59,586 nucleotides of DNA from a virus. Its lineage: Duplodnaviria; Caudoviricetes. The stretch's first letter is position 1. Each line of letters starts with the position of its first letter. Location of the stretch: the IMG/VR virus record IMGVR_UViG_3300026536_000001, positions 1 through 59,586 of that record, one strand, 5' to 3'. A program made the position numbers and the translations under genes. Below the pieces are notes generated by a model. The model saw nothing but the letters and a program-made list of their open reading frames with translations. It was not told the origin of the DNA and did no database searches. Of this stretch, positions 3,183 to 59,295 are shown piece after piece.

Positions 3183-3346
3183 CTCGCCTTCGTCTCGTTT
3201 CGTCACAAAGCGTTCCACTTCGCATCGGATCTCGAATTCGTCTCGCAACAAACCACGGCACTACGCCTCGCCCCACTACGCTTCTCGGATTCGTCTCGCC
3301 TCGCAACACGCCACACCACATCGCAGCGAGACACGACGCGACTTCA
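3183..3346 (-). ncRNA. YG-NNN guide cassette, 3 units, all matching gene 3344-4315
   Basis: handles at 3183, 3231, 3284, 3337; decode to LFQSSFM, LKTGYLPY, LLNATIRD. Confidence 0.85.
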
Positions 3347-4315
3347 CTCCGCGGGAAAGATCAGTACTCCTAATCCGGCATCGAACCCGATTCCTTTCTC
3401 TCCAGTCACACTCGCCAACCACTCATCATTGCGGATGGTCTCATTGACCAAATTCTTTTTGGCCTCGGCATCCAGCTTCGTCCGCCGCATTAAAAAAGTC
3501 ATGAAACTCGACTGGAAGAGCGCACGCTTGACTTCTCTCCCCTTATTTTGCTTGGCGAGTTCATCCAATCCATCTTTCGCGATCGCGTCATAGTCGGCCG
3601 CGACCACGGTTCCGGTTTGAATCTCGCCGTTCGGTGGGATGACCGCCGCCGATCCGCTATTGGGTGATGGAGCCTTCGACCCTGCTCCGGTCCTCGTGGG
3701 TATCGGCGTCTTCCCAGCGGGCTTTCCTTTCCTCTCATACCCAAATACGTGAATCTTCTTCACACCTAGTAGTGTCCTCTCCCGTGTGGCATCTCCGCCT
3801 TCCGGAGTGAAGCCTGTCTTCAGCCGCTCGACATCGAACTTGGTTCCTTCCAGATATGGCAGATAGCCGGTCTTCAACAATTCATCCTTGAAGCCTTTAT
3901 CGGCCAGACTATGAGCGAATTTTGCCCAGGCGCAGTTCTCATAAATCTTGATCGGTTGGTGGTTGGGATCGCCAAACACGGTGTTGCCCTCCGCCCCGAG
4001 GGCCGCCCCCATATCCTCGGCCTCGCTGTCTTCGGGTTTGGCCAGCTTCCCTGGACGCAAAATATCGAGGGTATTCTTCCTGCCGAACCCTAAATGTTCC
4101 AAAGCGGGTTCGTCGTCGATCCTCTCCAACGTGTTGGGATCTAATTTGTACAGCTCTAACCGCACCATACAGGCCGGATCGGTTTGCTCTCCGGTTTGAC
4201 TGTTCGGCGGAAATTGATACACGATACAACTGGCTTTTCCGATCTCCCAGGTTCCTTCCTGAGCCCCGAATCCTCCTTTAACGGTATCTTTACTCGATAG
4301 ACTGATCTTTGGCAT
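3344..4315 (-). CDS. hypothetical replication-region protein (possibly ssDNA-binding)
   Basis: true start probably MPKISLSS (ATG 4315, SD AAGGAGAG); function inferred from context only. Confidence 0.65.
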   Translation of the reverse strand: MPKISLSSKDTVKGGFGAQEGTWEIGKASCIVYQFPPNSQTGEQTDPACMVRLELYKLDPNTLERIDDEPALEHLGFGRKNTLDILRPGKLAKPEDSEAEDMGAALGAEGNTVFGDPNHQPIKIYENCAWAKFAHSLADKGFKDELLKTGYLPYLEGTKFDVERLKTGFTPEGGDATRERTLLGVKKIHVFGYERKGKPAGKTPIPTRTGAGSKAPSPNSGSAAVIPPNGEIQTGTVVAADYDAIAKDGLDELAKQNKGREVKRALFQSSFMTFLMRRTKLDAEAKKNLVNETIRNDEWLASVTGEKGIGFDAGLGVLIFPAE

Positions 4316-4577
4316 GAAACTCTCCTTTAGGTTGAATGTTGATGTGTAAAGCGAATCCGGCATGGGTGACCGGCTCATCGGCACCGCACTTGAAACAGAT
4401 GCCTCTTTCGCGAAGCAGGTTGGGTTCTTGGAAGGTACAACGCTCACCACACTGGGGACAGGTGAATTTGAAGTAGATGACGGCACACTCCGGACCACCG
4501 AATCGAGTGACGACATCATCGGCCCGCTTCAGGATTTCTTCGCGCGGCAGGTCGCCTTGACGCGGCTTGAAGTTCAT
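4290..4577 (-). CDS. zinc-ribbon protein
   Basis: CPQC..CFKC; SD AGGAG before MNFKP. Confidence 0.6.
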   Translation of the reverse strand: MNFKPRQGDLPREEILKRADDVVTRFGGPECAVIYFKFTCPQCGERCTFQEPNLLRERGICFKCGADEPVTHAGFALHINIQPKGEFHAKDQSIE

Positions 4578-4621
4578 CGGCTTTCTCCTGATATTAGAAG
4601 TAAAAACGGATTGCACGTGTA

Positions 4622-4650
4622 ATAATATGAGCCTGGACGACTCCCGTCAA
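4622..4650 (-). promoter_or_regulatory. sigma70-like promoter TTGACG-N17-TATTAT
   Basis: read on minus strand upstream of 4577 start. Confidence 0.55.
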
Positions 4651-4831
4651 GTCTTTTTGACGAACAATAACCGGTATCCGAAAGGTGAGTGAAGTATAAT
4701 CGCCGGTCCGGCACCTCCAGATTCCGGCCACTCAAAGGCATCGCGGTGCTGGAGGAGACGTGCCTTTGCCGGTATCGACTCCAACAGTTCGTCCCACGCC
4801 AGCTTCGAGAGGACACACACGCGATCTTCCA

Positions 4832-6478
4832 TCATTCGTCCATTCCGAGGGCTTCGCGTTTGTCGAGGCTGTCATCATCGGCGATATCCTTCCGCGGCGT
4901 CCGTTCTGGCAGCTTCGTCAACGGCTTCGGTATCGCACTCACACTGAACACACTCTGGCTGAACCAACGCGGTGCCAGCTCCCGATTCTTTCCTAATAAC
5001 CACGATAAATGCGCGTCGGTGATAAACACCTCACACTGATCCGTCTCACTCCTCATCCCTCTCATGGTGGACTGGGCGAGTTCCTGTAAAGCTTCGGCAT
5101 TCATCCAATCCGGATCGTATCTGGTCTTGGCTTTAGCCAGCGGGGATTGGCTGGGCTGGAATGGCACCTTGGCCACAATAATAAACTCGCATTGACTAGC
5201 TGGGAAATCCCATCCGGTCCCGAACGACGGGGATACCAGGATCGCCGGTGCCGCGGCCTTCCTAAACTTATCCGCCGCTTCCGAAGCCGTGTCCGAGTCG
5301 GGATCGGTGGTATTCGCAATCATGAACCGGGCGTGCTGGGAATGCTGGAGCAAAAATTGTTGACGAGCGTAGGAGACCGTGTGGATCAATCCCTTCCGGT
5401 CCAATCTCGCGCCGATGATCTTATCGATATGCCGCACCCAGATGGCCAGCTCCTCCTCACTCGTCCTCCGATCCACTCTCACGGCCTTACCATTCGATCG
5501 CGGCGGGCAGAGATACACGGGCGAGCGTTCGGCCGGGAATATTCTCCCCCATTCCGTGAATTGTCCCTGGAGCCCGAGCTCCTCCAAGGTTCGTTTCTTG
5601 AGTGTCGCACTCATCAACACCACTCTCTGAACTCCCTGAATCAACAACCCGGTATATTTCTTAGGTGAGATCACATCCCAGGTCCAGGTCCTCCCGGCTG
5701 GCGTTGAGGCTTCGTACTCGAACACCCACTCCACTTTCGTCTTCCCCGGCAACGGCACCGGAAATCGCGCCAGCTTTTCCTCCAGCCTCTTCCAGCGTTT
5801 CAGCCGGTCTGTGCCTGTTGGAGTGAGGGCCCGGACACTGAGATCCTGAATGGCGATCCGGGCCAGTGGACGGATCTGAGCAACCCAGTGTTGCCAATCC
5901 GTGAGATTTCCGGTCTTGGGAGGAACCGTCACGATCCGCAACAAATGGAGTTCTCTATCGTCTATCGCGATCCTTAAATGATTGGCTAAATGTTTAACGG
6001 CATGAACCGCCTCATCCAGAATCAGCGTGTCGAAATTCCCGATCGCCTTGATCCCGGCCGCCAACCAATAACTGTAGTTCGACAACACCACAGGCGCGGC
6101 AGCAGCTTGTTGAACCGCGGCGACGTACCCCTCCGGGTTCGCACACCCACATCCCATCGGCCGTCCATCCTCACAGGTACGTGCCATGGGACACGGATAG
6201 TTCACCTGGCCTCGCACATCGACGAGATGATTGCGGAAGTCTTTGAGATATTGATCTTCTAAACCTTTCGTCGAAGTGAGAATCAGGGTTCGACCGGGCA
6301 GGCCGAGCTTCGCAATCGTCGCCGCCACCAGAGATTTCCCCGCTCCCGGCGGCAGTCCTAAACCCTGCACGGCGGAATCGCCGTATAAAGCCTGCTCGAC
6401 CGCTTCCAACTGCTCCGGCCGGTAGCTCTCATAGGAGAAACCGAGGTCTGCTGGCCGGAGGCCGTCCAGCGTGGTCAC
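4832..6478 (-). CDS. DinG/Rad3-like SF2 helicase
   Basis: YRPEQ Q-motif, PPGAGKS, ILDEAVH, MSATL, GWDFP, KVPF, RGMRSETD. Confidence 0.85.
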   Translation of the reverse strand: MTTLDGLRPADLGFSYESYRPEQLEAVEQALYGDSAVQGLGLPPGAGKSLVAATIAKLGLPGRTLILTSTKGLEDQYLKDFRNHLVDVRGQVNYPCPMARTCEDGRPMGCGCANPEGYVAAVQQAAAAPVVLSNYSYWLAAGIKAIGNFDTLILDEAVHAVKHLANHLRIAIDDRELHLLRIVTVPPKTGNLTDWQHWVAQIRPLARIAIQDLSVRALTPTGTDRLKRWKRLEEKLARFPVPLPGKTKVEWVFEYEASTPAGRTWTWDVISPKKYTGLLIQGVQRVVLMSATLKKRTLEELGLQGQFTEWGRIFPAERSPVYLCPPRSNGKAVRVDRRTSEEELAIWVRHIDKIIGARLDRKGLIHTVSYARQQFLLQHSQHARFMIANTTDPDSDTASEAADKFRKAAAPAILVSPSFGTGWDFPASQCEFIIVAKVPFQPSQSPLAKAKTRYDPDWMNAEALQELAQSTMRGMRSETDQCEVFITDAHLSWLLGKNRELAPRWFSQSVFSVSAIPKPLTKLPERTPRKDIADDDSLDKREALGMDE

Positions 6479-6548
6479 GATCTCGTCTCACGACACGGCA
6501 CCTCACCGCGCCCCAACACACGACGCTTCGCGGCGATTCTCGTCTTCG
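6476..6548 (-). ncRNA. YG-NNN guide cassette (1 unit) matching helicase N-terminus
   Basis: decodes to LDGLRPHDFGF vs resident LDGLRPADLGF. Confidence 0.85.
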
Positions 6549-6589
6549 TGGACGGCCTCCGATACTTCACCCTCATCGCGATTTCACTC

Positions 6590-7207: not shown

Positions 7208-7298
7208 CCAGGGTTCTGCTCATGGCTCGGCTTCACCTCGCTTCGGAACGGGTCACGCCACAGCAGCGCGATTCTCGCCTTCAGGACAGCCTCCGATG

Positions 7299-7903: not shown

Positions 7904-7904
7904 A

Positions 7905-16572: not shown

Positions 16573-16673
16573 ATCGACTTCGCCCCGATTCGCCTCACCT
16601 CGCGTCGTTTCTCGAATTCGTCTCGACTCGCCTCAGCCCGCCGCGCGGCGGCTCATTCCACCACTCGTCTTCA
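16573..16673 (-). ncRNA. YG-NNN guide cassette, 2 units
   Basis: handles 16573, 16611, 16664; one unit matches adjacent 16487-16507. Confidence 0.75.
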
Positions 16674-16966
16674 CGAAGGAGCACACTCGATTCTGTTTAC
16701 CGGAGCGCCTTTTTCCATGACTCCACCCGCTCTTTAGAAACCTCAATGGTGGTATGGTTGGTACGATTGTCTAGGCGTATCCAATAGCGCCTGCCATCAC
16801 CGGACCCCGTTTGATAGAGGGTTTGAACACCGGTTTTGAATATTCGTCTGGCCAATATCTGTCGCTGGATGGTTTCAACCATAGATCCACCATACCAGCA
16901 GGTAATACACCGCGGCCGCGATCAGGGCCACTCCGATCATGGTCAGCCACTTCTCCAACAGACGGC

Positions 16967-17713: not shown

Positions 17714-18109
17714 TCACACCGTCCTCGTTCGACTTACAGCAGGCGGATAAAGCCACGTCACTCCGTCAGGTTTCGATAAATCCATATCCAGATGAATAAA
17801 GCTGAAGCCAATACCAACCCTTCTGAAACCTAACGCGATGGCATTTTCGACGATCACAAATCTTGTGTGACTATCCCTCGCTGTGATGTCAACTGCAAGG
17901 CCGTTTTCGTGCGAGGAGGAATCGACTCCTCCGACTTCTCGATTGTGTTCGGGTGTGCGATATCCACTACTGATGAAGAGTGGAAAGCCGCATTTGGACC
18001 GCAGCTCGTCGAGGAGCTTTACGAAATCGAGATTCATCTTCGAGCCGCTTCCAGGCGCATCTGGACTTGAGAATTCATCCGGTTGGAAATAGCGTATGCC
18101 TTCCCACAT
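17714..18109 (-). CDS. peptidase M15A-family endolysin
   Basis: SSGYRTPEHN..SSHENGLAVDI..FIHLD. Confidence 0.9.
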   Translation of the reverse strand: MWEGIRYFQPDEFSSPDAPGSGSKMNLDFVKLLDELRSKCGFPLFISSGYRTPEHNREVGGVDSSSHENGLAVDITARDSHTRFVIVENAIALGFRRVGIGFSFIHLDMDLSKPDGVTWLYPPAVSRTRTV

Positions 18110-18164: not shown

Positions 18165-18242
18165 CTCGGCTTCACCCCAGAACGGCTCGAAACGGCCCAC
18201 ATCGGCCCACATCGGCTCAGCGCGAAACGACCCTCGGCTTCA
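18165..18242 (-). ncRNA. YG-NNN guide cassette (1 unit, 12 triplets) matching endolysin
   Basis: decodes to GFRSMGMGFSFG vs resident GFRRVGIGFSFI. Confidence 0.85.
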
Positions 18243-18274
18243 TCCCGTCCGGCCTCCGGTAAAATTCGCTTCCT

Positions 18275-20689: not shown

Positions 20690-21415
20690 ATGCCCAAAGG
20701 TTCACCTCCCGGCCGCCCTTTCAAGAAAGGAGACATCCCGGCCACCAAAGGCAAGCACCAAGTCCGTGGCTATTATCCGGGAACCCGTAAGCAGCGGGAG
20801 AAGGCCCCGCCCCCTCCACCTCCGACCGAGGGTCAGATCATGGACTCCATCGTCCAGAAGTTGAAGGTCGCCGACTCTCCTCTCGCTGTGGCTTTCTCTT
20901 CGCTGGATGGCGGCTGGCGCAACTATATCCGGTACGTGATCCAGGCGGCAAAAGAGGGCGACACTGAGATGCAGCGGTTCATGAACGCGCTCAATGGTCT
21001 TTCCGCACGCGAACGGTTGACGGTCTCTCCCGAAGATGTCTGTGATATGGCTGGTGTAAGTGTGGAGGATCTGATCGGGGCGGTCCTGCCGTTAATTTGG
21101 CGCTACTCCCGCTTGAGAAGTTCCATCGTTGCGGCCACTCACGATCCGGTCGTCCTCCGAACCACAGCGGCGTATGCGATGCGTCCGGATAATCAGCACG
21201 ATCGCGAGATCTTCTTGAAGGCGACAGGAACATTGCCAATTCCGAAAGGCAGTGTGACGGCTATTTTTAATTCCGCTGGTTCTGGGCCTCCCCCTCCGAC
21301 CCCGGCAGGAATCCTTCCCCCGGTATCTTCAGACATTTCAGATATGGAAGCTCTCGACGATAAATTTTCAGCTAGCAACCCCCTTGACACATCATCCAGT
21401 TCGGATGAGAATTGA
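20690..21415 (+). CDS. probable terminase small subunit
   Basis: GRPFKKG N-terminus, directly upstream of terL; its stop TGA is the first base triplet of a guide handle. Confidence 0.55.
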   Translation: MPKGSPPGRPFKKGDIPATKGKHQVRGYYPGTRKQREKAPPPPPPTEGQIMDSIVQKLKVADSPLAVAFSSLDGGWRNYIRYVIQAAKEGDTEMQRFMNALNGLSARERLTVSPEDVCDMAGVSVEDLIGAVLPLIWRYSRLRSSIVAATHDPVVLRTTAAYAMRPDNQHDREIFLKATGTLPIPKGSVTAIFNSAGSGPPPPTPAGILPPVSSDISDMEALDDKFSASNPLDTSSSSDEN

Positions 21416-21530
21416 AGCCGAGAGGCGAAGCGCCGCGTGCCGTCGTGGGACGTAGTGACGTGAAGCGCCGTGAGCCGCGCTGGCGTGTTGTGCCGTGACG
21501 TGAACCGCAGTGGGGTGAGACGAATTCGAG
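21413..21530 (+). ncRNA. YG-NNN guide (20 triplets) complementary to a terL homologue
   Basis: decodes to LPWFVGNARLGFVYPEHGFL vs resident LPWFTGSARLGYIYPEQGFL. Confidence 0.9.
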
Positions 21531-21542: not shown

Positions 21543-23696
21543 ATGTACAGCGAAAAAGTCACACAAGCCAAGATCGCGTTCGCGTTGAGGACCGGCTTCT
21601 TGAAAACGGAGCCGGTCTTCCACACCCGCAGCGAGTGTGATGCCGCAGTCTCCCACCTGAAGTCCAACTGGGACGAAGACTCACAGACCTGGAAGCGTGA
21701 GTTAACTCGCGAAGAGATCGCGTTTATAAAAAACGAAAGGTTTCTCTGTCGCGTCAGTTATAATTATTGGAAAACGCGGTACTGCTGGATCAAGTCCCGT
21801 GAAGATAAGCCCATCCGTTACACTCCATGGGTTAGTCAAACAATTCTGACAGACATATTTTCCGAGCACGAGATCGAAGGCATCGCGATCGAGTTACAGG
21901 CACTTAAGGCTCGACAGCTCGGAGTCTCCCGCGAAGTCTCTCTGGCGCAGCTCCATAGAGTTCAGTTCTTCAGTCACATCAACGCCATGATGGCTTCCTC
22001 TGCTCCAGCAAAGACGGCGAAACTCGGCGATATGTTAGCCTTCACGTTGGGTTATCAGCCGCACTGGTTACTGCCTCGTTTCGCTTTCGGCCCCCGTGAG
22101 CAAGCCCAGCACTTCGGCGGGGAGTGGTTCGAGCTAGAGACAGGCTCCTCACTCACACTCCAGTCCGGATCTCAAGTCACTGGTATCGCCCGCGGCACAA
22201 CCCCTACCGTTATTCATATTAGCGAGCTTGCCGAGTTCGAGTACCAAGGTCTCGGCCCCGAAGAAGTCATCGACTCATCTTTATTCCGCGCAGTCCATCC
22301 CTCCGCTCGTGTCTTCATGGTTCTGGAATCCACCGCACTAGGCCAGTTCAATTGGTGGCACAAGAAGTGGCTCTCCTCCAAGTCCGGCTGGCCGACACGC
22401 CGCTCCCGCCTGCGTCCGGTCTTCCTTCCATGGTTTACCGGAAGTGCGCGTTTGGGCTATATATACCCAGAACAAGGATTTTTGGACCGCTCTCCCGTCC
22501 CCGCCAACTACTCTCCCGCACTCTGGGCTCTCGAACACGCCAAGCGAGCCGAAGATTACGTCAAGTCGAACGATACTCTGCGGGCGTACATGGGAAGCAA
22601 CTGGACGATGCCTCGCGAACAAATCTGGTTCTACGAAGTCGAGCGCCAGCAAGCCGTTAACGAAAATCGCTTGAATAAATTTTTTCAAGAGATGCCAAGT
22701 AGTGATGACGAGGCTTTTCAAAGTACGAACGTCTCGGTCTTCTCCACTGAAACCATCACCGCGCACCGCGACCGCACCCGCGCTCCACTCGGCGTCTACG
22801 GCTTGATCGGCCCGGATATGTCCCCCCGCACGGTCCTCTTCTCCCGCGCTCACATCGATCCCAACTCTAAACCGATTGTGATCGATTATCCGTGGGGCGC
22901 TCACCCGCACCAATACGAACTGGTCCCTCTACGCTGGGACGGTTACGCGACCGATGACGGTTTAGACAAACTCTACATTTGGGAGATGCCCGAAGACGGC
23001 CAGATCTACGGCCTCGGTGTGGACACCGCCGACGGTATAGGTAAGGACCGCTCAACCATAGAGGTATTAAGAAAAGGCTCTCCTCTTCAACGGGCGGGTC
23101 AGTGTGCGGAGTTCGCCTCGGATAAGATCAACGCTTTGGACTTGACCCCATACATGATGGCTTTGGGAGCTCTCTTCAGTGTCAAAGACACGGATGGGAA
23201 TCGTCGTCAGTGCCGTGCGGCGATTGAATGCCGGGGCAAGGGTGATCTCTCCCAATTGGGCATGAGAATCGATGGCTGGAGAAATTTTCACCCTTGGCAA
23301 CGTATTGATTCTAAAACCATTTCTCCCGACAAAGTAAGCAAGTTAGGGGTATTTACAAACGAATGGTTTCGTCAATCGATTCAAGAATATCTGGTGAAAT
23401 TCCTTCGCGATGAAGAGGTTGAAATTCTCTCGCCGTTCCTTGTGAGTGAAATGCAGTCCCTTGAGTCTCGTGAGGACGTGCAGAGCTTCCGCGCGACATA
23501 CGGCGGCCACGATGACAGAGTGATGTCGCTCGGTTTTATCCTCATTTCGTTATATCAGTACGAGCCCAATCGTCCTGTTGCTGCACTGACACAGACGAAG
23601 CAATCGCGGGGGCAAGTTCGATTTGAACGCAAATACGCTTCCTGGCGACCCAACGATCAGGAGCGCCTGACTACTTTAGATGACGCCAGCGTATGA
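21543..23696 (+). CDS. terL: terminase large subunit
   Basis: LKARQLGVS Walker A, HISE Walker B, LESTA, GVDTADG and HDDRVM RNase H-like motifs. Confidence 0.92.
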   Translation: MYSEKVTQAKIAFALRTGFLKTEPVFHTRSECDAAVSHLKSNWDEDSQTWKRELTREEIAFIKNERFLCRVSYNYWKTRYCWIKSREDKPIRYTPWVSQTILTDIFSEHEIEGIAIELQALKARQLGVSREVSLAQLHRVQFFSHINAMMASSAPAKTAKLGDMLAFTLGYQPHWLLPRFAFGPREQAQHFGGEWFELETGSSLTLQSGSQVTGIARGTTPTVIHISELAEFEYQGLGPEEVIDSSLFRAVHPSARVFMVLESTALGQFNWWHKKWLSSKSGWPTRRSRLRPVFLPWFTGSARLGYIYPEQGFLDRSPVPANYSPALWALEHAKRAEDYVKSNDTLRAYMGSNWTMPREQIWFYEVERQQAVNENRLNKFFQEMPSSDDEAFQSTNVSVFSTETITAHRDRTRAPLGVYGLIGPDMSPRTVLFSRAHIDPNSKPIVIDYPWGAHPHQYELVPLRWDGYATDDGLDKLYIWEMPEDGQIYGLGVDTADGIGKDRSTIEVLRKGSPLQRAGQCAEFASDKINALDLTPYMMALGALFSVKDTDGNRRQCRAAIECRGKGDLSQLGMRIDGWRNFHPWQRIDSKTISPDKVSKLGVFTNEWFRQSIQEYLVKFLRDEEVEILSPFLVSEMQSLESREDVQSFRATYGGHDDRVMSLGFILISLYQYEPNRPVAALTQTKQSRGQVRFERKYASWRPNDQERLTTLDDASV

Positions 23697-23917
23697 ACGA
23701 AAAGGTCTTTCAATCCAGTCACTTGCAACGCGGCGTTTACGATCCGGCGACGGGGAACCTAGAGATCGAGTTCGTCAATGGTCAACGCTATACTTACGAG
23801 GGCGTGCCGCAAGAGAAATGGGAGGCCCTGACACGAGCGGTATCCCCCGGAAAGTTCTTGCATAACTGGATCAAAGGATCGCATAATTCTCGACCGATGG
23901 GCACCTCTGAGACCTGA
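23693..23917 (+). CDS. KTSC domain protein
   Basis: YDPATGNLEIEFVNGQRYTYEGVP..SPGKF..IKG. Confidence 0.9.
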   Translation: MNEKVFQSSHLQRGVYDPATGNLEIEFVNGQRYTYEGVPQEKWEALTRAVSPGKFLHNWIKGSHNSRPMGTSET

Positions 23918-28578: not shown

Positions 28579-28598
28579 GTATCGGGATCGCGATCCAC

Positions 28599-45205: not shown

Positions 45206-45302
45206 TGAAGACGAGGTGCGACGTGTTACGCCCGTGATCCGAACCGATATGAGGTGAAGTCGAGCAGTGATGTGCGATGCAGCGATACGGGACGAAGCCG
45301 AG
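45206..45302 (+). ncRNA. YG-NNN guide cassette, 2 units, enclosed by a 13-bp inverted repeat
   Basis: handles TGAAGACGAG, TGAAGTCGAG, CGAAGCCGAG; IR 45190-45202/45311-45323. Confidence 0.75.
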
Positions 45303-50017: not shown

Positions 50018-50405
50018 CGTCTCCGGAGCACGTCTAGGATAGAGGTTCCAAATAGGTCCGCAATCCAGCCCGCGATAAATAGAAGAACCATGAGTAGAAC
50101 CCAACCTACAAATAAAGCTGCTGCAATCGTTACGATCACTCGACTTCACCTCACTTCATCCATAACCCTATTTGCGGTGGCCGGACTCGATACCGGCTGG
50201 TGGCGCTTCCGCTGGCAATGATTCGGATTTCTTAATCGCCGTATCAAGGAGCCTCTCTTCGGCGAAACGCCAGTCTGGACCCTTTAACCCTGTCCGGTAC
50301 TCCGGTTACCTGCTCCTAACGGTTTGCGCTCACTCTCCATTCGCTCCCCCTACTGCTAGAGGGACCTCGCTAGGTCTGTGTGTCCTGTCCACACCGCACC
50401 GCAAA

Positions 50406-50640
50406 CTCGACTTCATCTCACCACATTCCGGCTCGCCGCAAAACTCGGCTTCGTTTCAGCTCGTCGCAAACCACTACACACCAAGACGATTCTCGAATTC
50501 GTCTCGCTTCGTGACAACTCGTAACACCGCAATGCGATTCTCGGATTCGTCTCGTTCCAGATCGTCTCGCCTCACGTCGCCACAAATCACCACTCGGCTT
50601 CGTCTCGTCTCGACTCGGCTCACATCGCCGCTCGGCTTCA
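50406..50640 (-). ncRNA. YG-NNN guide cassette, 5 units
   Basis: handles 50406, 50444, 50492, 50540, 50593, 50631. Confidence 0.85.
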
Positions 50641-51015
50641 CACGGTCATGGCCGGTATCGTCGGCAACGGGATCTCCGGATCAGGCTTCTCCTCCGGCTG
50701 CAAGATTGAACCCAGGTCCGCAATGGTCGCCACATGCCGGACGGTATTTCCGCGGATCAGTAGCAAACCACCGCAATGAAAACAGTTCGCCCAGTTTCCC
50801 GTCGCTGCAATCGGGTTCAACTGGGTCTCCCGGACATCGTGATTGGCTCGAACATGGACCGGCGACGGCTTCCGGGTTTGAGGCTTCCCCTTCCGGAGAG
50901 AACCCGCTTGATTCGCGTGCCAGCGTTCATGTGCGGCCAACCCTCTTATATCTATTGGTTTAGCGCAGATCGAACACGGCACTCGACGCATTATTATTTT
51001 TGTTTTTGCCTTCAT
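50638..51015 (-). CDS. C2H2 zinc-finger protein
   Basis: CSIC..HERWH; CFHC. Confidence 0.6.
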   Translation of the reverse strand: MKAKTKIIMRRVPCSICAKPIDIRGLAAHERWHANQAGSLRKGKPQTRKPSPVHVRANHDVRETQLNPIAATGNWANCFHCGGLLLIRGNTVRHVATIADLGSILQPEEKPDPEIPLPTIPAMTV

Positions 51016-51199: not shown

Positions 51200-51550
51200 T
51201 CACGGTTTCAGCACCTCGAAAAACGCCTGCTGCCAGTAGCCCTCGCCGGTCACGTAAGACTTCTCGATCACATCCGGTGGGACACCGTTTTCCAGGAGCA
51301 GTTCTCGCTTGATGGAACGGCGGCCTTTCACCCACGTCGATCGGAATCCGATACCGTTATTTTTCACTCCCTGAATCCCGTTCATCGTACAGACATTCGA
51401 TAACCCGGCTTTGATCTCGTTCAGACGTTCGATCTTCGACTTGATCTCTCGATCCAGGGCGAACCCTTCGTCCAACAACGCTACGGCCTCTTTGGCGTCG
51501 CCAACGTTGAGTGTTCCAAACACTGGCTCGACTTCGGTTTGTTCTTTCAT
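51200..51550 (-). CDS. hypothetical protein
   Basis: 116 aa; matched by adjacent guide. Confidence 0.7.
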   Translation of the reverse strand: MKEQTEVEPVFGTLNVGDAKEAVALLDEGFALDREIKSKIERLNEIKAGLSNVCTMNGIQGVKNNGIGFRSTWVKGRRSIKRELLLENGVPPDVIEKSYVTGEGYWQQAFFEVLKP

Positions 51551-51589
51551 AAACGTTTCCTATTCGTATCGGGGCGACCCCCTCTGGTA

Positions 51590-51662
51590 CTCGCCTTCGT
51601 CTCAGACCACCTCGCAACGCGGCACCTCGCGGCACGGCACGTCACCGCACAACTCGGCTTCA
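51590..51662 (-). ncRNA. YG-NNN guide cassette (1 unit) matching gene 51200-51550
   Basis: LTLNGLGGVR(N) vs resident CTMNGIQGVKN. Confidence 0.8.
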
Positions 51663-53102
51663 TCCCTTCGACCATCTACTCATGATTTTTGACTCCGCTT
51701 CGACAGGTACACGAAGATATGACTCCGATGAGTCTCTGTCAAGCATAACATTCATCATGGTCGCGGCAGTCATGTCCCCGACAACCTCGGCCCACTCTTC
51801 TTCGACTTCAGACAGCAGTTCGTCGTGGATACTTACGAGCGGTTGCACCCAGACATTCCTCTTTCGGAGGTCTTCGTGGACTTCCTCCATCTCTCCCATC
51901 GTCAGCCGCATCCAATCCGCACCCGTACCCTGGACCGGCATGTTGGCGGCCTGTCTCAACCCTGCCGCTCGAATATGGGGTAGCGCCGACTGGACTTCAG
52001 GCACCTTCCTAACACGCCCGAATAGGGTCCACACGACACCGTACCGCCGCGCCCGATAGAACTGGTCCTCGATATAACCCTTGACTCCCGGATACCACTC
52101 ATTGAACCAGCGTTCAATAAACCGTTCGCACCATGCCACGTCGATCTCCGGAGGGAGAGGGAGATTGGCCGTCGCGTAGGTTACACACATCATGTCGAAC
52201 AGTCCTGGCCCGCCCAGACCATAGAACACCCCGAAATTCACATTGCGGCTCGGTGTCCGCTGCGTGATGTAATCTGGCGTCTGGGTATTGAACGCCAATT
52301 TGGCCGTCTCGTTGTGGGGGTCAATGCCGAGTTTGAAGATCCGGATCAGGTTCGCGTCCTGGCTGTAATGCGACCCGATTCGCATCTCCTCTTGACTGAA
52401 ATCCGCCGAAACTAAACGGGTTCCCGGACTGGCAACAAACCCCTTGCGAAGTTCGCGTCCCAGTGCCGTACGGGAAGGGATGTTCTGGAGGTTGGGATTC
52501 TTCGTTGCCAACCGGCCGGTCTCTGTCCGCGTATCTAATACTTCCGCATGGACCCGATCGGTCGCTCCATAGTGTTTTAATCCGCACCAGCAGCTCCCCG
52601 CCGGATGGTGCCGCGCTAATTTGGGTAGCGCATCGCAATAGGTACTTTTAAGTTTCATTCTCTCGCGATAATCCAACACTTTCTGAATCACCGGATGCTC
52701 GCGCTTCAACCCTTCCAACTGCTTCTTCCCCGTCGATACCCGGCTGCCAGAAGGAGTCATCTTCAACGGCTTTCCCTGACCGACTTTCAGTACATCAAAA
52801 AGCAGGGTGGCCAGTTGATCCGACGATCCCACATTCATGGGTAGATAATCGTCATCGCCAATGAGATTGGAACGGCTGATGAACTCTTCTAACCGGTCCG
52901 GAGGGATCACCTCACAGATCTCTTCACGCAAGTAACGGGCTTCCCGTTCCAGGCGGATACCGAGATCGGCGAAGTAGCCTTTATCGATCGCAATACCATA
53001 TTGCATCATCCGGCGGACCATCGGAACGGGTAACAAATCGAGCTTTCTCACGTTTTCGAGGTCGGGACGGTTGGTTACTTGGATATCACCATACAGGCTC
53101 AT
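51660..53102 (-). CDS. polA: family A DNA polymerase, polymerase domain
   Basis: TETGRLA..NPNLQNIP, ADFSQEE (motif A), RNVNFGVFYG (B), IHDEL (C). Confidence 0.92.
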   Translation of the reverse strand: MSLYGDIQVTNRPDLENVRKLDLLPVPMVRRMMQYGIAIDKGYFADLGIRLEREARYLREEICEVIPPDRLEEFISRSNLIGDDDYLPMNVGSSDQLATLLFDVLKVGQGKPLKMTPSGSRVSTGKKQLEGLKREHPVIQKVLDYRERMKLKSTYCDALPKLARHHPAGSCWCGLKHYGATDRVHAEVLDTRTETGRLATKNPNLQNIPSRTALGRELRKGFVASPGTRLVSADFSQEEMRIGSHYSQDANLIRIFKLGIDPHNETAKLAFNTQTPDYITQRTPSRNVNFGVFYGLGGPGLFDMMCVTYATANLPLPPEIDVAWCERFIERWFNEWYPGVKGYIEDQFYRARRYGVVWTLFGRVRKVPEVQSALPHIRAAGLRQAANMPVQGTGADWMRLTMGEMEEVHEDLRKRNVWVQPLVSIHDELLSEVEEEWAEVVGDMTAATMMNVMLDRDSSESYLRVPVEAESKIMSRWSKG

Positions 53103-53332: not shown

Positions 53333-53673
53333 CTTTCGAAATCGGCCATCATTTCAACGGCTCGATCGGCAGCCGTCACTAGTTGATGAAGTAAGGGCAA
53401 CAGCACTGAGGAAAGAGCGACGATGGAATTCAGAGGATCTTTCCCCTTGACCCGCGCCATCAAATCCCCGGCGATCGCCTGAGTCTCTTCCAACGCACCC
53501 GGTCTGGCGATACGGTGGCAAATCGCGCTGAGTGGTATCTGAACTTGTTGGGCAAGCTTCGCGATCTCATTGCGCCGGTCGATGGTGGCTTCCAGACCAG
53601 ACTTGCCACTGGTTCTGGCCTGACTGGCTAGCTCCCTGACGGCTTCTTGAATCGCTCTCTCCTTATCGGTCAT
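53329..53673 (-). CDS. hypothetical protein
   Basis: SD GAGGAGG before MTDKER. Confidence 0.6.
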   Translation of the reverse strand: MTDKERAIQEAVRELASQARTSGKSGLEATIDRRNEIAKLAQQVQIPLSAICHRIARPGALEETQAIAGDLMARVKGKDPLNSIVALSSVLLPLLHQLVTAADRAVEMMADFER

Positions 53674-54394
53674 GATCCTCCTCACGAACCCCGAAATAGC
53701 CGAGCCGCTCCCGTTCTTCCTCAAGCGCGACCGCTAATTGCAGAGTCACATCCGCGTCTCTTACAGCGTATTCGACGGCCTCCTCTTCCGGCACCCAGCC
53801 AATCCCCTTCTCCGGGAGATCCAAATCCAACCCCCACTGCTGTTCAATCTCCTTTAACCGGCTCTCTATGTCGTAATCCGGACTCTTCATCCCAAATTTA
53901 AAAATGCGTTCCAAAGTCCTGTAGGCGATACTGGGTTTCTCGACCACCTTGACGGCTCCGCGGCGGGTTTCCTTCCACTCCAGATCCGGAGTCAAGGCCG
54001 CTTCCATCAGCAGCTCCGACAGTCTTTCCAACAGCTTTTCCCTGGAGGCGGCCCCCACGAGATCCGACCAATCTTGCATCCGGACACCGAACAGGCGGTA
54101 GCCGAGAACCTTGAGACTCTGAGGCAACCCCAGATGATATGACTCCTGAAGTGTGTCTCGATAACGTCCATGATATCGAACGCCGATGAGATCCATAACC
54201 GGCAGGTCGGCCGGAGCGTGATGGAAGACCAAAATAGCACCGCTGTCGAGCCTTGAATTGAGCAAATCCACCAAAACGGCCACTGCCTCCGTGTCGGACA
54301 TTCGAACCAAGATTCCTGTTCCCGGCCGCAGCGACACTTGGATACTGAACGGCGCCCCGGCGTGACTTTCGGTATCTATGCCGATCAAGTCCAT
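53663..54394 (-). CDS. 3'-5' proofreading exonuclease domain (split from polA)
   Basis: IGIDTE (ExoI), FHHAPADL (ExoII), YAVRDA (ExoIII). Confidence 0.85.
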   Translation of the reverse strand: MDLIGIDTESHAGAPFSIQVSLRPGTGILVRMSDTEAVAVLVDLLNSRLDSGAILVFHHAPADLPVMDLIGVRYHGRYRDTLQESYHLGLPQSLKVLGYRLFGVRMQDWSDLVGAASREKLLERLSELLMEAALTPDLEWKETRRGAVKVVEKPSIAYRTLERIFKFGMKSPDYDIESRLKEIEQQWGLDLDLPEKGIGWVPEEEAVEYAVRDADVTLQLAVALEEERERLGYFGVREEDHDR

Positions 54395-54861
54395 ATCTTC
54401 CTGTTACGGATACGACTCACGGTGCTCTGATGGACACTGAACCGTCCGGCAATCTCTAGCTGCGTCCCGACGGCCCGTCGTATCGCTTCGACGACCTTCG
54501 GCCCGTGTACCCAGCTATAGCGATGCGGCTTAACGAGGACGCCGACCCTTTTCTTCTTAGCGGCATCCCGCATGTTATCCGCGTCCGATCCTGAAAACAG
54601 ATGGGCCGGATTGCAGCAAGGCGGATTATCGCAGTGGTGGCAGATCAGGCGTGATGTGTCCATACCCGTGATAGAAGCGACAACCCGGTGGGCGTAGAAG
54701 GAAACCACATGCTTAGGCTCGATAGCCACGATAAACCGGCCGTAACCCGCAGCCGTTCTCGGACCCATCCATTCCCAGCAATCGTTTTTGTCTCCAGTGC
54801 GAATCGTCGAATGGAGACGGTGAAGTTGATCACCACTGAACTCCGGGATAGGTTTAATCAT
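54385..54861 (-). CDS. HNH homing endonuclease
   Basis: CWEWMG..YAHRV..CHHCDNPPCCNPAHL..DNMRD. Confidence 0.92.
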   Translation of the reverse strand: MIKPIPEFSGDQLHRLHSTIRTGDKNDCWEWMGPRTAAGYGRFIVAIEPKHVVSFYAHRVVASITGMDTSRLICHHCDNPPCCNPAHLFSGSDADNMRDAAKKKRVGVLVKPHRYSWVHGPKVVEAIRRAVGTQLEIAGRFSVHQSTVSRIRNRKIWT

Positions 54862-55131
54862 GTTTTATTTTCTCGGTATCGGCCCCGATCAGGTTCACTT
54901 CCGTCGTATCGCAACGGTCCACTCTCGCCTCGGCCGAACCTGAAACCGCACACATATCCGGCACATCCTCCCGAACGGCCTGGACGACCACTTCGTCTCT
55001 TCCAAATGATGAAGATCCTTCCCACAAATCGTCTTCCACTCATCCATTGTCACGGTATCGACAAGGTGGGTGGAGGAGGTCCGCCGCGAATAAACGGTAT
55101 GGTTGAATTTCCAAGCAACGTAGTCCGCCAT

Positions 55132-55344
55132 TTATTCTTCGGGCTCCGGTCCGAGATACGTCTTCCAACACTCCCCGTGCAGTCCGGTGATCAACCGCTC
55201 GCGCTCGTCTGTTGTGAGCTCCGGAAAGCATCTTTGGATCAACTCCCCCGCCTTCCAACGCCGATACGCCGCCTCGTCCAGATCGAACTGCTGGGTCTGT
55301 TTGCACACCGGACAGGGCTTGCTATAGATCCGTATCGTCGGCAT
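55132..55344 (-). CDS. small zinc-binding phage protein
   Basis: CPVC..LIQRCFPEL..RERLITG..CW. Confidence 0.65.
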   Translation of the reverse strand: MPTIRIYSKPCPVCKQTQQFDLDEAAYRRWKAGELIQRCFPELTTDERERLITGLHGECWKTYLGPEPEE

Positions 55345-55955
55345 CAGGGATTCTCCTCGAAGTACGTCCGCACCCCATCTTTATGGACCAATCGATAGTC
55401 CGTCTCGGGATATTGATCGACCGGCCACACCCACTCTCGCGTCTCCAGCCACGGTTGGAGCCGCTTCCAATCATCGAGCAACACGCTCATCCACCTCGTT
55501 TCGTGTAAACCTAACGCGGGATGATACATGGGAACAATAAATCCCTTCCAGCCAAACAAGCTCCCCTCGAAAGGACGGCCATGATCCGTCTCTAATCGGA
55601 GACCTGGAACGAGGGAACACGCCACTCCTCCTAACAGGAATACGATCTCCGGTTGAACCTTATCGAGTTCACCAGGGAGCCAATGGGCCGAACACCCGGC
55701 GATCTCTTTCTCGTTAGGAGTGCGGTTGCCCATCGCAAAACATTTTACTGTGTTGCTAACGAATACCTCCGTTCTAGAGAGCCCGGCGAGCGGGAGATAG
55801 GTTTCATTCCACTCCCGCCCGGATGGACCCACAAACGGAATCCCTTGTTTCATCTCCCACTGGCCCGGTCTTTCCCCGACGGCTCCGTATCTCGCCGGAC
55901 ATGGACCGTGACCCAGGACCGGCCTGAACCTCCTGGGACAGATGGGACAAGTCAC
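55344..55955 (-). CDS. uracil-DNA glycosylase (family 4-like)
   Basis: VGERPG..PFVGPSG..NTVKC..MYHPA. Confidence 0.88.
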   Translation of the reverse strand: MTCPICPRRFRPVLGHGPCPARYGAVGERPGQWEMKQGIPFVGPSGREWNETYLPLAGLSRTEVFVSNTVKCFAMGNRTPNEKEIAGCSAHWLPGELDKVQPEIVFLLGGVACSLVPGLRLETDHGRPFEGSLFGWKGFIVPMYHPALGLHETRWMSVLLDDWKRLQPWLETREWVWPVDQYPETDYRLVHKDGVRTYFEENP

Positions 55956-56191
55956 GCCGGTAGTCCCTCACCAACGTACTCGAACATCCTCTCCCAATCC
56001 GCCCGTGGAATATGACAATGCCGGAGCGTCCCGGCCCACTCCGGTTCGATCCGTAACGGAACATAGGTCACCAGATCCGGACCTTTCCCGTAGTGGTCCC
56101 GCGACAGGTTGATGAACAGGTACAACTCACCAACACCACCACCTTTGCCGCGGCCGGACACAGCGATCTTGCGATAAACTCCAGAGAGCAT
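55952..56191 (-). CDS. hypothetical protein
   Basis: SD GGAGG. Confidence 0.55.
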   Translation of the reverse strand: MLSGVYRKIAVSGRGKGGGVGELYLFINLSRDHYGKGPDLVTYVPLRIEPEWAGTLRHCHIPRADWERMFEYVGEGLPA

Positions 56192-56199
56192 CTGGCCTC

Positions 56200-56460
56200 C
56201 TATTTCGGGAGTAGATTTTCCGGGAAGTCGATCTTCCGTATCTTACTGTTCATCCACATCTTAGCTACCTCGAATGGTAGGCGGATGTTGAGATAGACCG
56301 CCCCTTTCAGGGTTGTGTTTACTCCATCTGCTGTTTTTGGATCGATCTCCCCGTTCAATTGAAGATTCAAAACTTCTTCGTAAACATCACGATGGTTCTG
56401 AACCGTCTTCAACGGCATGAATCGTTTCTTCTTATCATCGGCTTTGCTTTCGTCAGGCAT
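56200..56460 (-). CDS. small protein directly downstream of the main guide array (candidate accessory)
   Basis: SD AGGAG; 86 aa. Confidence 0.65.
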   Translation of the reverse strand: MPDESKADDKKKRFMPLKTVQNHRDVYEEVLNLQLNGEIDPKTADGVNTTLKGAVYLNIRLPFEVAKMWMNSKIRKIDFPENLLPK

Positions 56461-56487
56461 ACTCCTATCCTTTCTTTGAATTCGGTA

Positions 56488-57231
56488 CTCGGCTTCGTCT
56501 CAGATCACAGCACTCCAGCGCAAATCGATACTCGAATTCGTCTCGTCTCGACACGCGGCAACGCTCAACGAATCACCCCGGCCCTCGGCTTCATCTCAAC
56601 ACGTTACGTTGTGTCACACCTCGGCTTCACGTCGTCTCGCTTCGTATCGCGACACCGCTCTGCGCCTCTTGTATTCATCCCAGCACACTTCAGCGCAACC
56701 GCACAGCACGTCTCGGATTCACATCGCCTCACTGCAAGACGCAACACAACACATCGCCTCTCGACTTCGCCTCAGCTCATGTCACCGCGCATCACGACAG
56801 ATCGACTCTCGGCTTCGATTCACAACAAGCTCGACTCCGTTCATCGCGGATCGTCTCTCGGATTCATCGCAGCTCAACGCGCTTCACACCAACTCACGCC
56901 ACCACGCGACAACTCTCGGATTCACATCGGCGCACACCAGCGCAACACGTATCTCGGATTCACCTCACCACGACACTCGTCGCTACGCTTCACAACACAA
57001 CTCGAATTCGCCACAACTCACTTCGAAACAACGCACCACGCCGCGCGACACGTCTCGAATTCGTCTCACAACACTGCAACACACACCATCACGTCACACG
57101 TCGCAACTCGGATTCGTCTCGGTTCGTTTACGTATCAGGGCGTCCCCTATTCTCAATACTCGAATTCGTCTCGCGCCACACCAGCGCAACTCGCGTCGAA
57201 ACGCGGCACCTCGCTACGTCTCTCGTCTTCG
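56488..57231 (-). ncRNA. main YG-NNN guide array, 15 units between 16 handles
   Basis: handle spacings 43,53,36,48,44,48,48,49,58,38,48,53,53,52,63 (11 of 15 = 5n+3). Confidence 0.9.
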
Positions 57232-57235
57232 AGCT

Positions 57236-57937
57236 TTAGCTCGCTTCTTCAATGGTAGCGATATACTTTCCTCCGCCCGCTGATCTCTCCCCACCGTAGC
57301 CGTGCGTCCCTCCATAATTCATCAGCGTACTCAGATCCTTGATACTCACGGAGGTTCCCAGGATCTTCAATCTGAATTTGATCATGGCGGGCCGCACCAC
57401 TTCAAAGGACTTCAACGCATTGATGGGTTCTCCTCTCGGTCCTCTGGCGTGGACTGGCTTGTCCAACACTTCGTCGGCCGCAGTAACCGGAGTCCCGTCT
57501 GGCCGCAGGATCGGAATATACTCGTTGGCCTCATCCAAATATGCCCCGTTCACTACCCTTGTTGCAAAGCTCCGTTCACCTTTTATTTTCCCTATAAATT
57601 GCGCTGAGATCACCCTCGCACAATCCTTCAAATGCGCCCGTATCGTATCTTCCCGCACCACCAGCACCTCGTTCTTTTTCTGAAACACTCTTAACGGAAT
57701 GGCCGCTGTTGTTGGATTGGTCAGCGTATCGAGAACCTCCTCGGTGATCTCATCAATACTCTTTCCTCCTGCTGGCATCACGTCCGGAGCTCTACTGTCC
57801 AACCAGGGTCCGACCAGATTCCCATTGGCAGGCACAGACCCGCACAAGTCCCGGATGAAGTCCCACCTCACGTTATAAACGGTCCAGATCGAATCGTTTC
57901 TCTCTTTCGTTTTCGTTTCTTTCTCGGTAATACTCAT
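57236..57937 (-). CDS. stand-alone RAMP/Cas7-like RNA-binding protein (VIPR-like effector)
   Basis: N-terminal beta strand plus LCGSVP, TIRAHLKDCA helix, C-terminal G-rich loop YGGTHGYGGERSAGGGKY; abuts array; start MSITEK with SD AGGAG. Confidence 0.8.
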   Translation of the reverse strand: MSITEKETKTKERNDSIWTVYNVRWDFIRDLCGSVPANGNLVGPWLDSRAPDVMPAGGKSIDEITEEVLDTLTNPTTAAIPLRVFQKKNEVLVVREDTIRAHLKDCARVISAQFIGKIKGERSFATRVVNGAYLDEANEYIPILRPDGTPVTAADEVLDKPVHARGPRGEPINALKSFEVVRPAMIKFRLKILGTSVSIKDLSTLMNYGGTHGYGGERSAGGGKYIATIEEAS

Positions 57938-58016
57938 TGTTGGTTCTCCTGTTTTTATTGGCGACGTTCCGTTCCGTCTATGATGTACCGGTATCTCCCC
58001 CGGTGTAGGGAGTCTA

Positions 58017-58044
58017 ATTATATGCCCACAGTCGATATTGTCAA
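58017..58044 (-). promoter_or_regulatory. consensus sigma70 promoter TTGACA-N16-TATAAT driving RAMP gene and array
   Basis: perfect hexamers ~80 nt upstream of RAMP start. Confidence 0.8.
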
Positions 58045-58228
58045 GTGTCCACTTCAACCTTGCCATCGTGTAGACGCACGACGATTTTCAAAAACTCGGA
58101 ATTCTTCGTTTCGGCCATTATGGTTTTCGTATCCAATAAAAGACTCTTCCCGCTGCCATAGAGAAGATACAGCTTATCCAGATGTTCAATCAGGCTGTGA
58201 AACTCCGCGCGGACCTCCTGTTCAAAAG

Positions 58229-58990
58229 TCATACCGGCCTCCCATATAATTCCTTCACCACCTTCTCGGCCGTGACTCGGCTCTTCTTAATCCCGAGAGC
58301 TTGCATCCACTCCTCCACACTCGCCGAAACCATACTGACGGCGTTCGGGAAGAACTTCCCCACTTGCCATGCCCGGTGGTCGATACCTTCGATTTGACTG
58401 GCCATCCTCACCACGAGATTGGGCGGATCGGGGTGGATCAGCCGAACTGAAGTTGACTCTGGAGCTACCGGAGCATAGATGTCTCTCGGGCTCTTATGCG
58501 CCTCCCAGTCCTTCTCCCACCAGCGATAGAGATCCACAACACACTTCGCGGTCTCAGTTGGATTCGCTGTTCGACGGATCTTGACTCCGCACAATTCAAC
58601 GGAGGTGCAAAAATTATCCACTCCCTCGTATAGAGTCAACCTCTTCCCGAACAGCCCAGACCTCCATCCACCATTCCCATGGCAAATCTCCAGTTCTCCG
58701 CCTGGCCCCGGCCTCCAGATGCCCTCCACAACGAGGTATGTCACGTCGTAGGTCTTCAACAGCCCGCGCAACTGGTGGCCTTGTAACCGACCCGTCTCCA
58801 TTGATTGAATCAAGTCGGATATCGTTTTCCTCTCGACTCCAATAGAGAGCATCCCCTCCGGCCCGTTCCCAGCGAAAGCCAGGTCACCGAACTCCAGCCT
58901 CGACAACTGAACGATAACGCCGAAGGGATGGAAATAATTCTTCAATTCACGACTTCCGGCACGATCGTCTACAAGTATTTGCGGGTTCAT
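58229..58990 (-). CDS. ERCC4/XPF-domain nuclease
   Basis: ILVDDR..LEFGD..GVERKTISDL..YLVVEG. Confidence 0.85.
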   Translation of the reverse strand: MNPQILVDDRAGSRELKNYFHPFGVIVQLSRLEFGDLAFAGNGPEGMLSIGVERKTISDLIQSMETGRLQGHQLRGLLKTYDVTYLVVEGIWRPGPGGELEICHGNGGWRSGLFGKRLTLYEGVDNFCTSVELCGVKIRRTANPTETAKCVVDLYRWWEKDWEAHKSPRDIYAPVAPESTSVRLIHPDPPNLVVRMASQIEGIDHRAWQVGKFFPNAVSMVSASVEEWMQALGIKKSRVTAEKVVKELYGRPV

Positions 58991-58997
58991 CTCGACT

Positions 58998-59295
58998 CTC
59001 GGCTTCGTCTCGCTACAACTCGCGTCGGCACACTTCTCGGCTTCGTCTCGTCTCGAAACACTGCGACTCGTTGCGCTACGGGTCGTCTCTCGGATTCACC
59101 TCACGCCAGCACGAATCGACACATCTCACCACACTACTCGGATTCACCCCAACACGTCTCGTCACAACGCACCACAGCACAACACGGACCGACACTCGGA
59201 TTCACCTCACAGCAAGTCGTAACACAACACGCCGCAACGGTTCTCGACTTCACCCCACCACGCTCCACTCCACATCACGTCGCTTCTCGACTTCA
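58998..59295 (-). ncRNA. YG-NNN guide cassette, 6 units
   Basis: handle spacings 38,53,48,58,48,43 (all 5n+3). Confidence 0.88.

Follow-up and report, generated by a model that had tools for sequence, protein, structure and literature searches.

Guide cassettes resembling neighbouring genes are dispersed through the genome of a soil phage with a VIPR-like system

The window analysed here, 59,586 bases in length, is the whole of IMG/VR virus record IMGVR_UViG_3300026536_000001 (Duplodnaviria; Caudoviricetes), a complete virus record with identical ends of 127 nucleotides (nt). The phage is of soil origin and was present in about 20 soil metagenome runs from 16 studies, none of which was recorded as RNA. 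This work concerns a gene of its genome for a 233-residue RAMP protein and units of a short pentamer repeat that lie around this gene and in intergenic gaps throughout the genome. Both recall VIPR, first described in 2026 and proposed as the ancestor of CRISPR effectors, which comprises a stand-alone phage RAMP protein, Vipr, and vrRNAs of tandem YNNGG units (10.64898/2026.04.26.720920; here and below, statements about the VIPR preprints refer to the portions of their text available to us). It is very probable that the window system is a VIPR, as judged by fold, repeats, skip rule and array adjacency and not by protein-sequence comparison with a published Vipr. The protein gene, three large arrays and a small accessory gene are located as follows.

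57236-57937, minus strand: vipr, 233-residue RAMP protein (Cas7/Csm3-like), presumed vrRNA-binding effector from its fold and the association of its homologues with arrays
56488-57235, minus strand: main vrRNA array of 14 units, directly downstream of vipr; its first unit, 57163-57222, is vipr-directed
58998-59295, minus strand: vrRNA array of 6 units, upstream of an ERCC4-like gene and vipr; no own-genome match
50406-50644, minus strand: vrRNA array of 5 units at the end of a minus-strand gene block; no own-genome match
56200-56460, minus strand: orf86, candidate vipr-accessory (vap-like) small protein with no Pfam match; a homologue lies directly after vipr in 9 of 38 family loci

The vipr gene was placed at these coordinates because the database form of the protein has 233 residues. 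An AlphaFold2 (AF2) model of the protein (pLDDT 79.3, pTM 0.73) had 118 Foldseek matches at E<=0.001, the top ones being Csm3/Cas7 chains of type III-A, type VII and Cas7-11 effectors (E about 2e-6 to 7e-5, TM 0.31-0.53). Chain 6ifn_F was among these top matches; chains B and E of the same entry were used as queries in 10.64898/2026.04.26.720920. No Pfam family was found above cut-off, and hence no nuclease domain, and a PDB sequence search with the Vipr family profile returned nothing. A C-terminal Gly-rich stretch, G209-G223, is invariant, and the 271 database homologues are all unnamed. While a scan of IMG/VR with the exact header motif of the repeats (see below) gave no matches, a looser header pattern gave 29 loci, five of which were real arrays, the others being GC-rich chance occurrences; all five array-bearing contigs contained a vipr homologue. 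In 29 of 36 IMG/VR loci with a vipr homologue, TCG-headed arrays followed the gene at a distance of no more than about 3 kb, their G-rich strand running in the same direction as vipr. We therefore take the RNA to be the G-rich strand. In the window, arrays lie on both sides of vipr, and orf86 follows the array rather than vipr itself. The sequence-only reading of this DNA had proposed that the guides are served in trans by one RAMP protein; the Csm3/Cas7-like fold and the arrangement described in the VIPR preprints agree with this.

The header motif CTCGRMTTCGTCTC, with up to three mismatches allowed, was found 77 times in the window, whereas shuffled versions (n=100) had 27.6 matches on average and at most 45. 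Downstream of each header there are runs of R-N-N-N-C pentamers, the longest having 21 in succession. A unit thus consists of TCG and n pentamers, and units recur with periods of 38, 43, 48 or 53 nt. The pattern of TCG followed by six pentamers had 32 matches at 11 loci, and a reversed control pattern had none. Counting by headers yielded 41 units, the number first estimated, at 13 loci instead of the 12 given before, the extra one being 7226-7287. In 280 spacer pentamers position 2 is C in 54% of cases, and positions 3 and 4 vary freely. Read on the G-rich strand, the repeat is (g)YG+NN, NN being the variable dinucleotide: Y and G of the scaffold are invariant, the R and C at the pentamer ends being fixed by the run-calling rule itself, and the preceding G is present in 54% of pentamers. 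Guides have 4-19 variable pentamers and are separated only by a 13-14-nt repeat (CGA and two semi-constant pentamers). A CRISPR array was rejected as an identity for these repeats, since the repeat is only 13-14 nt long, the spacers are pentamer-periodic and there are no cas genes among the window open reading frames (ORFs) scanned. TIGR arrays, Rho-loading tracts and translated repeats were early candidates that were dropped.

Three further features were noted. In two units, 57107-57158 and 51540-51589, each adjoining an array, the pentamer frame is broken by a common element of ~20 nt that includes a short GC-rich inverted repeat. At 56018-56062, near ORFs 55952-56191 (minus strand) and 55653-56015 (plus strand), nine R-NNN-C pentamers follow one another with no TCG header before them; they may be chance or a decayed unit. 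Finally, 50150-50400, ~250 nt of non-coding, non-pentamer sequence with no Rfam match, separates the 50.4-kb array from a lone header at 50139.

Dropping the constant C-R dinucleotide of each pentamer gave strings that aligned in frame with nearby genes. When the three inner pentamer bases were joined, the best genome-wide matches lay beside the cassette, with mismatches confined to one column. Scoring positions 3 and 4 alone sharpened the matches (e.g. 31/38 against a shuffle maximum of 25). With position 2 ignored, seven guides were significant; with position 3 ignored there were none, and with position 4 ignored, one. Seven of 35 testable units beat all 300 shuffles within +/-3 kb; three further units had p<0.05 in this test, where about two are expected by chance. 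The claim that about 14 units decode to homologues of the phage's own genes therefore stands as regards decoding, which works, but is firm for these seven only. The ten dispersed cassettes, with their matches in NN positions, are given below.

3183-3342, minus strand: cassette of 3 units; unit 3235-3284 matches 3852-3875 in gene 3344-4519 (minus strand), 15/16
6476-6552, minus strand: cassette of 1 unit with a degenerate header; matches 6438-6467, codons 5-14 of the adjacent helicase gene 4832-6478 (minus strand), 17/20
7226-7287, minus strand: cassette of 1 unit; weak local match only, 12/14, p=0.04
16573-16677, minus strand: cassette of 2 units; no significant match
18165-18246, minus strand: cassette of 1 unit; matches 17798-17830, antisense to ORF 17714-18109 (minus strand), 20/22, the gene strands of the region being uncertain
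21409-21530, plus strand: cassette of 1 unit of 21 pentamers in a 127-nt gap before the gene of a 717-residue protein; matches 22427-22483 (codons 296-314), 31/38
23911-24035, plus strand: cassette of 2 units; unit 23924-23973 matches 23220-23243, 16/16, codons 560-567 of the 717-residue protein (AIECRGKG)
23977-24031, plus strand: second unit of the preceding cassette; matches 25467-25493 in the portal-like gene, 16/18
28443-28582, minus strand: cassette of 2 units, against flanking plus-strand genes; unit 28447-28521 matches 28711-28749 (codons 13-25 of gene 28676-29659), 21/26
45206-45302, plus strand: cassette of 2 short units, too short for target placement
51590-51666, minus strand: cassette of 1 unit; no significant match

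The seven firm matches cover 81, 82, 85, 89, 91, 94 and 100% of NN positions and lie 40-1500 nt from their cassettes, so that the matched gene is indeed adjacent or nearby, as had been claimed. They fall in genes for a helicase, the 717-residue protein, the portal-like protein and three others. The portal-like protein, of 690 residues, is so called as some of its homologues contain PF16510, which we take to be the P22-type portal family; the 717-residue protein beside it, which has no family match, is probably the large terminase, judging by size and position. Over the seven guide-site pairs NN identity is 136/156 (87%), and identity of the skipped base is 26/78 (33%). The skipped base is the third codon position in all seven matched guides. 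Judged against called ORFs, the target matches the sense strand in five cases and the antisense strand in two.

These regularities bear on the idea that the repeats are not guides at all and represent periodic sites for a TRAP-like RNA- or DNA-binding protein, or C-rich tracts for Rho loading. A period of 5 nt with a constant dinucleotide does resemble periodic protein-binding sites, of which those of TRAP-like proteins are an example. Against this, the variable dinucleotides are gene-specific and frame-locked, and arrays accompany a RAMP protein at 29 of the 36 loci mentioned above. We consider a non-guide role highly improbable.

The same data were examined for a second explanation, by which the dispersed cassettes are decaying or hitch-hiking copies of array units, spread by recombination at short repeats and without present function. 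Resemblance to genes would then reflect the origin of the units. Degenerate headers occur at 6476, 16573 and 28447, 6 of 13 dispersed units tested have no match, and in three of four soil runs contigs join cassettes together, an indication of either repeat-mediated cross-joining or assembly ambiguity. However, the pentamer frame persists without a break for as many as 21 pentamers, the excess of NN identity over identity at the scaffold-adjacent position indicates selection on the positions that are read rather than neutral decay, and wobble phasing holds in seven of seven cases. The four soil runs, moreover, are identical to the window, cassettes included, apart from one base, a comparison that is uninformative on cassette gain or loss. 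Relics therefore appear to be an improbable explanation.

Two observations concern the skipped base and the reading register. Of 26 cases with a purine at the scaffold position beside NN, 20 also have one at the skipped target base (odds ratio 4.9, Fisher p=0.0036), a hint either that real coding sequence is the source of the guides or that the skipped base is sensed by this scaffold position. The idea that the purine of each pentamer is itself a code was rejected, no link between purine and wobble class being seen. Unit 28525-28569 matches 28374-28394, 150 nt away, at 14/14, only when positions 2 and 3 are read and position 4 is skipped; this reading, shifted by one relative to all other matches, represents either a chance match or a second register. 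A promoter-like site at 21384-21412 (TTGACA, 17 nt, GAGAAT) adjoins the 21.4-kb cassette at its 5' end, in the orientation of the RNA, which would place the vrRNA in the operon leader of the 717-residue protein gene; the promoter scan overall was not above chance (6 sites vs 4.9 expected).

The decoding carried out here independently reproduced the published skip rule. In 10.64898/2026.04.26.720920 only NN pairs, one target base is skipped at the wobble position, targets lie on either strand and the outcome is transcriptional silencing; a companion cryo-electron microscopy preprint (10.64898/2026.04.26.720927) describes a filament and triplex mechanism. Satellites, prophages and rival VIPR loci are the natural targets described to date. 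The types distinguished are seven in number and vary in repeat and architecture, some having nuclease accessory genes, and the related consensus forms NNNGG, YNNNG and NNNNG are allowed, among which (g)YG-NN does not literally figure (10.64898/2026.04.26.720920). The window system is most readily compared with type II (phage SUSP1 and a Pseudomonas fulva prophage). Common to both are a small stand-alone phage RAMP protein, pentamers of three scaffold and two variable bases, NN reading with a skipped wobble base, targets on either strand, arrays beside and co-directional with vipr and a small accessory gene after vipr. Unlike type II, in which guides have 9-16 variable pentamers, guides here have 4-19, and 10 of the 13 loci are remote from vipr. 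Repeats reported next to Vipr-like folds include non-canonical ones, for instance CAC/NN and TGH/NN (10.64898/2026.10.21.760802); on the other strand CAC/NN reads GTG/NN, as in the window. In staggered arrays each vrRNA starts at the end of the one before it (legend of fig. S18, 10.64898/2026.04.26.720920), and such arrays resemble the head-to-tail units seen here. Both non-canonical and staggered arrays are described as adjoining their protein, however, and not as dispersed genome-wide.

The layout of the window differs from that of its relatives as well. The three arrays, with 25 units, have no own-genome match. The other ten loci, with 16 units, occupy intergenic gaps genome-wide, and it is here that seven guides match a gene nearby. 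In all five complete family genomes every unit lies in one stretch of at most 1.5 kb, compared to 11-13 loci in the window. Near-self matches were found for only one of 80 guides in 38 other family loci, which is about the false-positive rate of the test. This lone case, in a 6-kb IMG/VR contig (L083), is a 15/16 match of unit 2824-2873 to a site at 2231, ~600 nt apart; in this contig vipr is likewise flanked by arrays on either side, and the header subtype is that of the window. In 10.64898/2026.04.26.720920 targets are called at >=80% NN and no self hits are reported at that level, while seven guides here reach it against their own genome. Dispersal and self-proximal near-matches look new, though the supplements of the preprint may already list the clade or self-match scores. 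In the available text of the VIPR accounts we found dispersed self-proximal guides described neither as an anti-kin nor as a self-regulatory device.

Close published counterparts are solo vrRNAs that stand alone, away from vipr, and wobble-aligned vrRNAs against the vipr genes of rivals, whose self-match is lower than their rival match (10.64898/2026.10.15.759431). Guide 57163-57222 behaves in the latter manner: it matches two foreign vipr genes at 17/20, two more at 16/20 and its own vipr at 15/20 (site 57537-57566), and none of 200 shuffles reached 17. Solo vrRNAs, in contrast to the units described here, occur in vipr-less genomes, one or two per genome at an old VIPR locus, or in satellites targeting host REP decoys (10.64898/2026.10.15.759431). 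The window phage is vipr-positive and has ten extra loci, and each of the matched guides lies beside the gene that it resembles.

Mini-CRISPR arrays of archaeal viruses are also akin to this: short virus-borne guides against close relatives provide superinfection exclusion, although with host Cas proteins and contiguous spacers. To our knowledge such arrays do not adjoin the homologous gene of their own genome.

Sequences related to the window were sought for comparison of alleles. One syntenic relative in IMG/VR (G001) has 56-86% protein identity to the window and neither vipr nor period-5 arrays. A metagenome scan with the 717-residue protein produced 21 further loci of 32-78% identity, none with arrays, and no cassette-bearing close relative was found. 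For the 19-pentamer guide (the 31/38 match in the 717-residue protein gene), five cassette-less relatives score 32, 31, 31, 29 and 28. The guide matches G001 at 32/38, while the own gene matches G001 at 28/38. Being closer to each of the two than they are to each other, the guide looks consensus-like or ancestral. At codons of this gene where the own sequence departs from the guide, G001 and another relative (L037) carry the guide's state at four and the own state at one. At the portal-like site the guide reads Y, as do most of 25 printed homologues, and the own gene has F. Comparisons were extended to 120 homologues per gene by amino-acid compatibility, a weaker stand-in for a nucleotide-level guide search: one of the 120 is compatible with the portal-like guide at 9/9 residues (own gene 8/9), and 12 of the 120, the own protein included, are compatible with the 8-pentamer guide (the 16/16 match) at 8/8. 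Scores of the other five guides in G001 are below those in the own genome. All helicase homologues in the 50%-clustered library have at most 45% identity, too distant for codons 5-14 to be compared.

Taken together, VIPR guide RNAs, the dispersed ones of which act against kin, are the best overall explanation of the repeats, and we judge it evenly balanced. Specifically, the dispersed guides may silence the corresponding alleles of co-infecting close relatives, the own allele being spared by mismatches; this we put forward tentatively. Solo vrRNAs seeded beside near-matched essential genes would form linked poison-antidote pairs, a proposal that is more tentative still. By analogy with characterised VIPR systems, Vipr would polymerise along the G-rich transcript with one protomer per pentamer, hold the constant (g)YG bases and present each NN dinucleotide. 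The dinucleotides would pair with double-stranded DNA, every third target base being skipped, and the bound filament would silence transcription. Kin alleles in the same cell would be silenced, and the own allele would escape through a few mismatches, many of them Leu/Arg synonymous switches. With guide and spared allele side by side, recombination would seldom yield a self-silencing genome. We favour this anti-kin role on account of the behaviour of the vipr-directed guide, the guide states common to relatives and the published biology. The earlier suggestion that each guide is linked to a resistant allele is upheld insofar as six of the seven guides have 1-7 mismatches to their own site over 16-38 positions and the anti-vipr guide fits foreign genes better; it fails for the one guide with a 16/16 self match.

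A number of results weigh against the favoured explanation. As to the VIPR assignment, the scaffold is (g)YG before NN here and GGY in type II. There is also no folding signal for a structured 3' tail (energies equal those of shuffles, z -0.7 to +0.35), unlike the SUSP1 clade with its pseudoknot tail, only the 13-14-nt repeat serving as separator; since architectures vary between types (10.64898/2026.04.26.720920), the missing tail bears on the type of VIPR and not on membership. As to the anti-kin role, guide 23924-23973, if active, would make the phage silence its own gene, and five relatives match this guide at 14/16 only. A comparison over 973 kb of own and related sequence placed the own genome first for six of the seven guides. 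With the 19-pentamer guide, amino-acid compatibility is at most 16/19 among the 120 homologues, compared to 15/19 for the own protein. Target-site conservation is unexceptional (top 8%, 57% and 76% of windows). Eight of the 17 mismatched codons are Leu/Arg synonymous switches, which fit escape without protein change, but saturated synonymous divergence fits them equally. Own-lineage changes at read positions are not enriched in two patches of the 717-residue protein gene (4/22 vs 143/594, p=0.62). The last result, together with the match of six cassette-less relatives to the 19-pentamer guide (28-32 of 38), which is as good as that of the own allele, lends no support to the recoded patch that the sequence-only reading had expected in the gene beside a cassette. 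Finally, we found no data in the available text of the VIPR preprints on tolerance of 1-7 mismatches by Vipr, and it is this tolerance that decides between anti-kin action, self-regulation and homing.

The perfect self match and the fact that the own genome is usually the best match make self-regulation a serious rival, if an unlikely one. According to it, dispersed vrRNAs, each produced together with its target operon or next to it, load Vipr and dampen or time transcription of neighbouring genes of the phage itself (helicase, terminase-like 717-residue protein, portal-like protein and others), as negative feedback or an early/late switch. All seven guides pass the >=80% NN threshold of the preprint and every match is in cis within 1.5 kb. 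Sites 6438-6467 and 28711-28749 both fall within codons 1-25 of the gene that follows the cassette directly. Nor need self-targeting kill, because VIPR silences and does not cut (10.64898/2026.04.26.720920). Yet six of the seven guides are imperfect, and co-evolution of guide and site would be expected of a regulator that is maintained. At several mismatches it is the guide that keeps the state of relatives and the own gene that has moved. The vipr-directed guide fits foreign genes better than its own, and five of five complete relatives with the same Vipr family do without dispersed guides.

Selfish elements such as homing endonuclease genes and TnpB/IscB are linked to an allele that they do not attack and spread by repair after the sensitive allele has been cut. 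A homing-like or gene-drive-like arrangement had been proposed for the cassettes. In its strong form, the sensitive allele of a co-infecting relative would be damaged under direction of the guide, and cassette and resistant allele would both be copied into that genome during repair. Linkage between guide and mismatched allele is tight here, and the 21.4- and 23.9-kb cassettes resemble insertions, since at these sites G001 has either overlapping genes or a gap of 14 nt. Beside vipr, with an array on either side, there is a gene for an ERCC4-type nuclease, and some VIPR types have nuclease accessory genes (10.64898/2026.04.26.720920). However, characterised VIPR systems bind and repress DNA without cutting (10.64898/2026.04.26.720920, 10.64898/2026.04.26.720927), and, unlike with homing endonucleases or TnpB/IscB, no cutting activity is tied to the window system. 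G001, although vipr- and array-less, contains a syntenic homologue of the ERCC4 gene (41% identity), and among 38 family loci the gene was detected in only one. The perfect self match and the lack of an excess of own-lineage changes in the target patches speak against homing too, and with no cassette-bearing relative found a co-conversion tract is not visible. The mechanics first proposed are thus not borne out, and we regard them as improbable.

Few window proteins match known families. Those that do are as follows.

Window proteins, family match: family-A DNA polymerase; 3'-5' exonuclease; ERCC4-type nuclease
Window proteins, family match: D5-type primase-helicase; superfamily-2 helicase; Sak4-like protein; tail-fibre pieces

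There are no nucleotide matches to the window among GenBank phages, and polymerase identity to them is at most 37%. Rfam and tRNA scans of the window gave no hits, and GC by codon position did not fix the gene strand at 16.3-18.1 kb. The 3'-5' exonuclease is in two ORFs, 53663-54394 and 55344-55955, both of which align to one 502-residue gene product of G001; the insert (within 53663-55955) contains a 158-residue ORF, 54385-54861, with weak HNH and His-Me homing-endonuclease matches (E about 1e-3). A homologue of the 717-residue protein, P0166, has 1067 residues and precomputed Pfam matches to PF14528 and PF14890, presumably intein/LAGLIDADG families, which suggests that an intein is present in this gene family.

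The dispersed guides beside own genes represent a deployment of VIPR unlike those published. The seven natural guide-site pairs, with 0-7 mismatches, are a ready test set for the mismatch tolerance of Vipr. If the guides act against kin with immune alleles, they would constitute a compact natural example of poison-antidote linkage, with a programmable DNA binder as its basis. Should they act on the phage itself, VIPR would also be a device for phage gene regulation, turned inward.

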